A DNA stretch of 47,066 bases from a phage. Made by a program: the position numbers. The DNA lies in the sequence record OZ365185.1; one strand, written 5' to 3'. The first letter of the stretch is position 1. Every line of letters starts with the position of its first letter. This document shows positions 33,001 to 36,000 of the stretch, piece by piece.

Positions 33001-36000
33001 CAGCACAGACGGATTGCGCCCGGCGCATGGCGCGTTGTGGTCATGTTCTCGCTGTGCCAGTCGGAATGAGGCCACTGGCAGCCTTTTTCACGAAGTAACC
33101 AGCTTTCAAGACATTCCACGCCACCAGCACGACGGATCACTGCCTCATTGCGGAACACGGCCCGAACGGCAGGATCATCCGCCAGCGGTTGTGATGCCGC
33201 CGGAACGGCACCACTGGCGAAAGATGAATAACGCTCCGGCTCAGGCTCCAGCAGGACACGCCCCTGCATAAACAGGGGCATCAGCTCTGAACCTGGCCTG
33301 AACAATACGATCCCCATACGCGGGGCAATTTCAGGGGTCAGTAGTGCTCTCACGGCCACCTCAATGAACGGTATCGAGCAGCTTTAACAGCTCAGGAAAT
33401 CGGGATTCGAAGAAATGCGGCTGCGTCTCGCGCGGATTTGCGGGACTGGTGATGTTCTTGCCGAACATGCAGCCTTTCGCTGTCAGCGACCAGAATTTTT
33501 TGATGTTGTTAATCGCGGTACGGCTGTATCGTTCGCGCTGCTCGACGATCCCCAGCTTCACCATCTGGTGATATGCCTGATTAGCCGTCAGGCGGATACC
33601 ATACTGTTTCAGCAGTGCACTCAGTGACAGTGTCGGGCGACTTGAGCCATCGTGTGCATCAGCAGGAGCATCAATGGCATAGCGCGGTGCCAGATTCGGT
33701 AAGCCAACAGCCTCCTGGAGTTTCTGACAGGCACCAAGCACAGATGAGTTAGACAGGTTTAACTCCCGACGCATAAAGTCCAGCAGAATCACACCAGCCT
33801 GCATCTTGTCAGCAGCCTGTCCGGATAATTTTTCCGGTGCGCTGGTTACCATGTCGAAAGTACGGATCACCTTCAGATGGAATGACGGGCTGATCCACAT
33901 TGCATAGGCATACACCAGTTCCTTGCAGACATAAGTTCCCCGTTCATTTCCCCCATGAATCACACTAACCGGGCCAACACCCAAATTCTGGGTGTTGGTC
34001 AATTCATGAACAAGTTCAACAGTTTGTTGGCTGGAAAGAAACTTTCCTGGCTCCTTGGTTCTGGCATTTGCACCAGATGCGACTGCTGCGCGATGCAGAT
34101 CGTTCAGGCTGTAACGCCCATAAGCATCACGACGAACTTCAATACCATCAATGACCATCAGATTATTCATACTTCGTTTCTCCTTTTGCTCAGGCGGCTG
34201 CACCCGCCGTTTTCTCGTACTTACTGATAGTGATCTCGACCTTCCCTTCCGGGATAACCGGTCCCCACTCCACCAGCATTCTTCTCACCTGACTGTCGTC
34301 TTCCCACACACCCGCGTGGGTCAGGGCGTCAAACAGCGCCTTGTTATAGTTGTCCAGATCGCGGATCCGGTTATCCGGAGGAAACAACACGATCTCCACT
34401 GAAGCAGGTGCCGACGTTGGTTTTGGCAGACGACGTAACTGCTCAACTATTGCTGCACACGCCGCGCTCTGGAATTTGCGCCCCGCCGCGCTTATCAGGC
34501 TCTTACCTGCAAACGCCCCTTTGTTGGGGTGTCGCCAGTACGTGTTCACGCTGGGCGGGAAAGGCAGAATCAGCTTCATACTTTCAGACCCCTCTCATGT
34601 AACCAGTGGGCTGCACGCAGCCTGGCGTTTTCCTCACCGGCAAGCAGTGAGCGGATAATCCCGACCGCCTCGCTGTCGTCGTCCTTCACCGCGGTATGAA
34701 GCGTTATCCCCCGGGCCACACCACGCTTTATCGTGATGACGCCTTTTTTCTCCAGTGCGCGAAGATGCTCCACCGCTGCATTCACCGAACGGTATCCCAG
34801 CATGGTTGCCACCTCCTGATTGGTTGGCGGAAAGCCACGCTCTTTCTGATAAGAAATCAGCATATCCAGCACCTGCTGCTGGCATTGAGTTAACGTCGTC
34901 ATGCCGCCATCTCCCTGACCAGTTTTTCCGCCTGCTGGCGAACCTGCGCCAGAAACACCTCACCACATGCCTCAAGTTCATCGCGCCCGATGTAGCTGAT
35001 TGCCGGTCCCTTCCAGGTCTTGTCGAAAACAGCAATAGCACCAGCGAAGAAAGCGCCTGTCGGCACCTGCTTCTCATCCTTCGGGATAAACCAGGCAGGC
35101 AGTTCAAAACCAATACGCCCGCGAATAAAAGCAATATGATCTGCATCTTCCGGCCACCACACTTCGCTGGTGGCAGCTTTGATCAGGAAAACATAGCGCC
35201 CGCCTTTATCACGCATGGCACTGGCATGCTTCATGATGTAACGCATGCCGGTGATGTATTGCCCCTCATGCTGACTGGCGCGGCTGTATGGGGGATTACC
35301 AAAGGCAGCACCTTTAAGCTCCGCAAGACGTTCTGACCAGTCATGCGCCAGCGCATTGTCTTCCGCCGTGTAATACGCGGCACATTTGGCGTTATCACCG
35401 TCAGTAAACAGATCCAGAACAAACGGGCCAAACAGGGTGTTAATTCCCCAGAAAATGTTGTCCGGCGTGCGCCACTGATCGCCCACTTCCTTCAGTTCAT
35501 GGGCTGGTTTGTTCCGCAGTTCCACCAGCGCCTGGCAATATTTATTACTCATTAAGCCCCCACGTAATTCCCTGACAGATACCACTCTTCACCCGATGCA
35601 GCGCGCTTGCTGCTTTTCCGTAAGCACCGCTCACGACGTGCCAGAAAATTGTTTCGTTCTTGCTGGGAGTGGCTTTCACGGAATGCCGCCATCCACACGG
35701 TTGCAGCACGACGGTATAAGCCCCTTGACTCCAGTTCTTCAGCCTGGCAGGTCAGGCACAAAATCACCCGTGGATCGTTAGTGCCGACATAGAAATTGCG
35801 CACAGGTCTGGTTTCACGAACTGGTTGTGGTTCCGGCTCCTGCGCTCTCTCAGTCAGGCGCGGGAAATGTCTGCGTGTATCTCCTTCACAACGGTGAGCC
35901 ACACGCCCACTCTGACGTAACTTGCTTGCTGACTGCAGAACGCGCTGCCGTGAGTAACCTGCAAAAGCATCCGCAATGTCTCCGGAAGTACAGCCCGGAT

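Follow-up and report, generated by a model that had tools for sequence, protein, structure and literature searches.

A LexA-type DNA-binding domain with a conserved two-helix tail, encoded in the nin operon of Escherichia phage 1720a-02

The window analysed here, i.e., the whole stretch of 47,066 nucleotides in sequence record OZ365185.1, is essentially Escherichia phage 1720a-02, with identity to KF030445.1 over 2..28803 and 29652..47247. On the minus strand, the open reading frame (ORF) at 34576..34902, with an ATG start codon and its stop codon at 34576..34578, encodes a LexA-like protein of 108 amino acids (aa). Its upstream neighbour is a Dam N6-adenine methyltransferase gene (34899..35585, minus strand; PF05869, E 9e-46), and its downstream neighbour is a RusA Holliday-junction resolvase gene (34190..34579, minus strand; PF05866). 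The dam stop codon overlaps the LexA-like start codon in the sequence ATGA, and the LexA-like stop codon overlaps the rusA start codon in the same way. The local gene order was read as cI / cro - cII-like - antirepressor - replication protein - PerC-like - dam - LexA-like - rusA - KilA-N - DUF968 - Q, and the late genes lie downstream of the Q antiterminator. By the start/stop overlaps with dam and rusA, the LexA-like gene is placed in the early lytic operon, i.e., the lambdoid delayed-early (nin) operon.

The first 69 residues (34696..34902, minus strand) are a LexA-type winged helix-turn-helix DNA-binding domain, which aligns without gaps to residues 2-69 of Escherichia coli LexA. In Pfam, LexA_DNA_bind (PF01726) was matched over profile positions 1-65 of 65 (E 2.9e-19; 69 bits, cut-off 23.7), and the runner-up family, HTH_Crp_2 (E 0.0015), was weaker by sixteen orders of magnitude. 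PHROG 362, i.e., 'transcriptional repressor', was matched over positions 1-106 of 106 (phrog_362, E 1.4e-59). The seven best phmmer matches among PDB sequences were chains of E. coli LexA (1lea, E 7.2e-16), aligned as query 2-69 to LexA 2-69 with no gaps, and two LexA chains without species identification came next. BLASTP against E. coli LexA gave 39 identities in 90 positions (E 1e-21).

The AlphaFold2 model, for which a 17-sequence family alignment was the input, had a mean predicted local distance difference test score (pLDDT) of 83.6, with means of 80 to 90 in the 10-residue blocks over residues 1-70. Three helices (6-22, 28-35, and 40-52) and a beta-hairpin wing (strands 56-58 and 66-68) were predicted in the DNA-binding domain. 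The model was superposed on DNA-bound LexA (3JSO, chain 3jso_B) with a root-mean-square deviation (rmsd) of 1.0 A over 68 columns at 50% identity, and on the LexA structures overall with 0.9-1.2 A. In the Foldseek search of PDB, the top 12 hits were all LexA, and generic winged-helix proteins started at an E value of about 9e-3. Given the rankings in Pfam, PDB, BLASTP, and Foldseek, the similarity is specific to LexA and is not that of a generic winged helix.

The S24 peptidase domain is absent. No PF00717 match was obtained, the protein ends at residue 108, and the LexA alignment stops at about residue 90. The LexA equivalog of NCBIfam, TIGR00498, scored 70.8 bits, below its cut-off of 110.95. 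In LexA, this domain carries the Ser119/Lys156 dyad and is also the dimer-former, and the 108-aa protein has no counterpart of it. Without the S24 domain there are no catalytic residues, so RecA-stimulated self-cleavage is impossible. The residues A88-G89, within LLAGEE, align with VAAGEP of LexA, which holds the Ala84-Gly85 cleavage site, and the segment is predicted to be helical. Because the homology continues past the hinge as far as the cleavage-site region, the alignment suggests descent from a full-length lexA gene. The AG at 88-89 was also considered as a trans-cleavage substrate or cleavage-site mimic and was rejected as a family feature, since distant members do not keep the AG and a helix is predicted for the segment.

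In place of the S24 domain, the protein has a two-helix tail, residues 75-103 (34594..34680, minus strand), with the sequence SEAVGIIRSLLAGEENARLRAAHWLHE. A short, acidic linker of low confidence precedes it in the AlphaFold2 model (residues 71-75). The tail helices were predicted at residues 75-88 and 93-103, and the 10-residue blocks covering 81-100 had mean pLDDT values of 87-89. Relatives with as little as about 40% identity keep the pattern IIRxLLAGEENARLRAxxWLxxRG, and A97 and L101 never vary. Searched alone against PDB sequences and Pfam, the tail gave nothing significant (best E 0.69 and 0.049, respectively). Since it stands where LexA has its dimerisation/protease domain, we infer that it may be a replacement dimerisation module.

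An earlier reading of this DNA, made from the sequence alone and called here the original prediction, had described a nin-region protein of 108 aa that parallels the LexA N-terminal domain residue by residue over about 70 aa and lacks the S24 autopeptidase domain. The gene order and the overlaps with dam and rusA bear out the location, and the ungapped alignment over residues 2-69 with the full-length PF01726 match agrees with the parallel. The structure prediction and alignment to the LexA N-terminus, which it had proposed as a check, gave the close superposition on 3JSO, and its caveat that the likeness might be that of a generic winged helix is answered by the Foldseek ranking and the far weaker HTH_Crp_2 match. 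The loss of the S24 domain also holds, by the end at residue 108, the lack of PF00717, and the sub-threshold TIGR00498 score. The description of the protein as a LexA domain was right as far as it went, and the conserved C-terminal tail (75-103) was missed. The further proposal of non-cleavable occupancy of SOS boxes, with phage-directed rewiring of SOS-controlled genes, is reasonable as a hypothesis.

The helix III contacts of LexA with DNA are made by Ser39, Asn41, Ala42, Glu44, and Glu45 (PMC3091678), and the Asn41 contact is also described in PMC5999292. In the recognition helix of the phage protein, residues 39-52 (34747..34788, minus strand), the sequence is SVNAAVEHLRALEK, compared with SPNAAEEHLKALAR in E. 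coli LexA. Four of the five contacts are kept, i.e., S39, N41, A42, and E45, and E44 is changed to V. The beta-hairpin wing, residues 56-68 (34699..34737, minus strand), reads ITIKRGVARGITL, compared with IEIVSGASRGIRL in LexA, and the wing tip R64-G65 is kept. The wing contacts of LexA are credited with fixing the half-site spacing in PMC8565304, which cites Zhang et al. 2010 for it.

The recognition residues were surveyed in 107 full-length members of an enterobacterial prophage family, defined in the present analysis as 'LexA domain + two-helix tail'. S39 was kept in 100%, N41 in 98%, and A42 in 88% of the members, R64 in 106 of 107 (99%), and G65 in 107 of 107 (100%). Position 44 was never acidic (V/T/A/N/L/F), and position 45 was E in 58% and D in 28%, otherwise L/T/A/G. 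The true-LexA comparison set for position 44 held four full-length LexAs, which is too few to judge how rare the loss of E44 is. The LexA contact residues and R64-G65 are thus nearly invariant, although identity within the family falls to about 40%. With four of five contacts and R64-G65 conserved, putative binding to CTGT-type half-sites is plausible from the sequence. The base-contacting core of LexA is largely preserved, and the changes at positions 44 and 45 leave room for a specificity that may differ from that of LexA.

DNA of the gene was found in 2233 of 5426 complete E. coli genomes (41%). In the records listed, it always lies between dam and rusA and is annotated as 'LexA family transcriptional regulator'. 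The gene is present in SfV (orf42), SfII, SfIV, cdtI, mEp460, and Stx2a and Stx2c phages, e.g., as 'LexA DNA binding domain protein'. It is therefore a long-annotated and extremely common prophage gene, which the original prediction had overlooked on both counts. Relatives with the same architecture were found in prophages of Salmonella, Citrobacter, Cronobacter, Klebsiella, Enterobacter, Atlantibacter, and Hafnia. A scan for distant relatives with the single protein gave nothing beyond identical or near-identical copies. The 84 copies examined comprise 43 alleles, in which synonymous codon variants numbered 47 and non-synonymous ones 10, i.e., a ratio of non-synonymous to synonymous polymorphism (pN/pS) of 0.07, and the recognition helix had no amino-acid change. 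With this ratio and the wide conservation, the gene is under strong purifying selection and is functional.

The 108-aa protein shows all features of the family, i.e., a length of about 105-135 aa, S39/N41/R64/G65, a non-acidic position 44, a C-terminal helix-loop-helix with A97 and L101, and a nin-region position upstream of DUF968 and Q. In Escherichia, Cronobacter, and Klebsiella, where the gene context was read, no neighbour of the family is as constant as the DUF968/HNH-like gene (32364..33359, minus strand) directly upstream of Q. In Cronobacter prophages, the order is dam - LexA-like - rusA - Ant - DUF968 - Q. In Klebsiella prophages, the order is LexA box - dinI - orf - LexA-like - orf - DUF968, and dinI is a second SOS-modulating function in the same module as the homologue. 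At one Klebsiella prophage locus (L003, 4385..5393), a consensus LexA box TACTGTTTATTTATACAGTA, dinI, a small ORF, and the LexA-like homologue stand head to tail. By this arrangement behind a LexA box, the homologue may itself be SOS-inducible there.

Phage proteins made of a LexA domain alone are an already-known kind, and many stand-alone LexA-domain proteins of unrelated phages were present in the viral structure library. In the representative protein library, some proteins of 140-220 aa have tandem pairs of LexA-type DNA-binding domains on one chain (P0132, P0133, P0152, P0156, and P0160). Two tandem LexA domains are another route to a dimer-like binder without the S24 domain. In the literature searched for the lambdoid-family proteins, no functional study was found, and a paper on Gifsy-1 (PMC9879122) proved to have no bearing on them.

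LexA boxes were scored by their matches out of 20 to the consensus TACTGTATATATATACAGTA. The window has 8 CTGT-N8-ACAG sites, compared with 0.41-0.68 expected, and among spacings of 0-20 between CTGT and ACAG the enrichment was at spacing 8 only. Sites with at least 15 of 20 matches numbered 5, compared with 0.13 expected, and lie at four loci. The two LexA boxes claimed in the original prediction, TACTGTATACAAACACAGTA at 1319..1338 and CTGTACATATACACAG at 46877..46892, exist, and further boxes were found. The boxes are certainly candidate sites for host LexA, and the link between carrying them and encoding a LexA-like protein is circumstantial.

The tandem boxes at 1291..1338, i.e., CACTGTTTATCCATACAGTT (15/20) and the box at 1319..1338 (17/20), lie upstream of a DinI-family gene (1352..1600) and are a candidate target. 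The pair at 46852..46894, i.e., CACTGTGTTTATAACCAGCA and GACTGTACATATACACAGGT, consists of a weak box (46852..46871) and a strong box (46875..46894), whose core is at 46877..46892. These candidate targets lie upstream of a SocA_Panacea antitoxin-like gene (46280..46768, minus strand). On the 3' side of that gene, a gene at 45709..46257 (minus strand) encodes a protein of 182 aa, which has a membrane segment at its C-terminus and no Pfam or PADLOC match. Together, the boxes and the two genes (45709..46894) look like an SOS-controlled toxin-antitoxin-like module.

A third candidate target is TACTGTATGTAAAAACAGTA at 39350..39369, a near-consensus LexA box within the cI-like S24 repressor gene (39141..39833, plus strand), in the part that encodes the linker. 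The cI gene of SfII keeps this box as TACTGTATATAAAAACAGTA, which is closer to the consensus, though both flanks have diverged. The cI-internal box was found in 24 of 80 related IMG/VR loci. No sigma-70-like promoter was predicted beside it, and it could act as a roadblock or be part of an antisense promoter.

The fourth locus is a weaker candidate, i.e., a LexA-box-like site AACTGGATATTTTTACAGTA at 31375..31394, which overlaps codons 3-9 of a late-region DNA methyltransferase gene (30344..31402, minus strand). The other allele, TACTGTAAAAATAAACAGTG, was found in SfV (orf48), cdtI (orf56), and 22 IMG/VR loci (locus L019, 11080..11095). Neither allele group shows any change in the core AATACTGTAAAAATA, and this constancy could reflect coding constraint or a real operator.

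Four more CTGT-N8-ACAG sites, with G+C-containing spacers, lie at 11309 (tape-measure gene), 16625 (head-gene intergenic gap), 22837 (terminase-region ORF), and 38124 (early operon), where about 0.7-0.85 are expected. The site at 38124 is the only one that recurs, in SfV, cdtI, and 18 of 80 loci, where its flanks recur with it. Their excess is a post-hoc observation and was not used as evidence.

The best explanation, with a probability of about 0.4, is that the protein is a RecA-insensitive stand-in for LexA, which would bind SOS-type operators as a tail-mediated dimer and re-impose repression. It would be a LexA paralogue composed of the winged helix, the acidic linker, and the two-helix tail, which RecA-stimulated cleavage could not inactivate. 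By its translational coupling to dam and rusA in the nin operon, the product would be made only after prophage induction or infection, from the delayed-early transcript. The dimer would sit on CTGT-N8-ACAG-type operators, with the tail and LexA-like wing contacts joining its subunits. Because the stand-in cannot be cleaved, repression at LexA-controlled promoters would be restored after the destruction of host LexA. The candidate targets are host SOS genes, the box inside cI, and the LexA-controlled modules of 1720a-02 and of co-resident prophages, i.e., the dinI-like and Panacea modules. In favour of this explanation stand the LexA-specific homology and fold, the near-invariant contact residues and wing tip (unlike the helix of gp6 of phage GIL01, which binds another site), the missing S24 domain, the conserved helical tail, the place in the early lytic operon, the low pN/pS, the excess of LexA boxes with enrichment at spacing 8 only, and the LexA box and dinI gene upstream of the Klebsiella homologues. 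In addition, isolated N-terminal fragments of LexA retain specific operator binding, with weaker affinity.

A broader form of this explanation is rather doubtful. Once lytic growth starts, the uncleavable stand-in would re-close SOS boxes genome-wide and shut down host SOS functions together with the LexA modules of rival prophages, e.g., antirepressors, toxin-antitoxin systems, and dinI. By occupying the box inside cI, it could also prevent new synthesis of the repressor and so hold the phage to the lytic decision. In Stx phages, SOS shut-off would then be coupled to toxin production and prophage competition.

Several points weigh against the stand-in explanation. E44 is replaced by V, position 44 is never acidic across the family, and position 45 is L/T/A/G in some subfamilies, e.g., SSNAVLLH in Klebsiella. 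Cronobacter prophages with dam - LexA-like - rusA have no LexA-box-like site within 10 kilobases, and the 80 related loci have 11 distinct CTGT-N8-ACAG sites, which is within the range at other spacings (1-17). The suppression of a co-resident prophage by phage 1720a-02 was traced to Cro in a 2025 preprint, which does not examine the LexA-like gene (bioRxiv 10.1101/2025.01.01.630987). The one characterised analogue, gp6 of phage GIL01, activates transcription and has an operator of its own (PMC6182141). That the tail mediates dimerisation is our inference, and no binding or expression data for any family member were found in the literature searched.

The example of GIL01 leads to a possible, though somewhat unlikely, alternative, i.e., that the protein is a phage-specific transcription factor whose LexA domain has drifted to its own phage operator and which activates or represses phage genes (nin, Q, or late timing) with no direct action on SOS boxes. 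GIL01, a tectivirus of Bacillus thuringiensis, encodes gp6, a truncated LexA homologue of 66 aa, which binds the palindrome GaCACAnnTGTGaC and switches on the late promoter P3 (PMC6182141). Both proteins are phage LexA domains without the protease, encoded in an early lytic operon and matched by PF01726, whereas gp6 has no tail and the protein of 1720a-02 has about 35 extra residues there. The recognition helices are SVNAAVEHL in the phage protein, SHKTAHRYL in gp6, and SPNAAEEHL in LexA. In gp6, K38 is essential and the site is not a LexA box, whereas the 1720a-02 protein keeps the LexA contacts instead. BLASTP of the phage protein against gp6 gave no alignment at E <= 100. Given this lack of similarity and the diverged recognition helix, the two are probably independent captures and analogous. 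An operator of its own would also suit the variation of positions 44-46 of the recognition helix among subfamilies, with position 44 always unlike LexA, the position just upstream of DUF968 and Q that is kept across genera even without a nearby LexA box, and the frequency of stand-alone LexA-domain proteins in unrelated phages. However, the base contacts of LexA, i.e., S39, N41, A42, and mostly E/D45, are retained much better in this family than in gp6. In the window, neither another conserved palindrome nor a different CTGT..ACAG spacing is prominent, and the late transcription of lambdoid phages is already under Q control.

It is improbable that the protein is mainly a protein-interaction module, in which the tail would bind a host or phage partner (LexA, the RecA filament, RNA polymerase, Dam, or RusA), whereas the winged helix would tether it or be secondary, e.g., to modulate the occupancy by host LexA in mixed complexes on SOS boxes. 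In favour of such a module, conservation of the tail equals that of the DNA-binding domain, no known dimerisation domain matches it, the LexA-like gene is tightly coupled to dam and rusA, and gp7 of GIL01 shows that phages do target LexA by protein-protein contact. However, the linkage to dam and rusA is not universal, i.e., the Klebsiella neighbours are dinI and DUF968, and the strong conservation of the DNA-contact residues argues for DNA binding as the central function. LexA contacts RecA through the domain that is missing in the phage protein (entry 8TRG), which also speaks against such a module. If the gene were a captured lexA that has lost its function and persists in the nin region as a remnant, this would account for the truncation relative to LexA and for the homology that runs through the hinge to the cleavage-site region (LLAGEE / VAAGEP). 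This reading is effectively refuted by the selection and conservation data, i.e., pN/pS of 0.07 over the 43 alleles and 40-50% identity kept across Escherichia, Salmonella, Citrobacter, Cronobacter, Klebsiella, Enterobacter, and Atlantibacter. The intact frame, the coupled start and stop codons, and the occurrence in 41% of complete E. coli genomes also stand against it.

One of the closest known proteins is E. coli LexA itself (residues 1-69; 1LEA, 3JSO). The phage protein shares with it the winged-helix fold (rmsd about 1 A, 50% identity ungapped), S39, N41, A42, E45, R64-G65, and the acidic hinge. It differs in lacking the S24 domain, in having V for E44, in scoring below the TIGR00498 cut-off, in the extra basic residues K59 and R60 of the wing, and in having the two-helix tail for the C-terminal domain. 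Its gene also differs in being phage-encoded and in a lytic operon. The non-cleavable lexA3 (Ind-) protein and the N-terminal cleavage fragment of LexA are LexA DNA-binding activities that RecA cannot remove, and this is the functional state that the phage protein is proposed to imitate. However, the former is a mutant and the latter a transient product of the host, and the fragment formed by natural cleavage is quickly degraded and a poor dimeriser, whereas the phage protein carries a conserved C-terminal module of its own. DinI-like proteins, one of which is encoded in 1720a-02, and GIL01 gp7 are likewise phage-borne modulators of the RecA/LexA pathway, but they act by protein-protein contact with RecA or LexA and have no LexA-type DNA-binding domain.

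If SOS boxes are re-repressed after induction, the protein would be a widespread viral way to end the host DNA-damage response. In that case, it could influence Shiga-toxin yield, SOS mutagenesis, antibiotic responses, and the competition of co-resident prophages. If the protein has its own operator instead, the lytic development of lambdoid phages would gain a further level of regulation, comparable with that by gp6 in tectiviruses. Besides its share of about 41% among complete E. coli genomes, the gene is carried by many phages of the Stx2a, Stx2c, cdt, and Shigella serotype-converting groups.

PADLOC gave no match to any defence system. At 28725..29960, intact stx2A (319 aa) and stx2B (87 aa) genes take the place of the aph cassette of GenBank KF030445.1. 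The window also retains, at about 23979..24638, the chloramphenicol acetyltransferase gene that is annotated in KF030445.1. By the intact stx2A/stx2B genes and the retained chloramphenicol acetyltransferase gene, the window is a marked or partly restored phage derivative.

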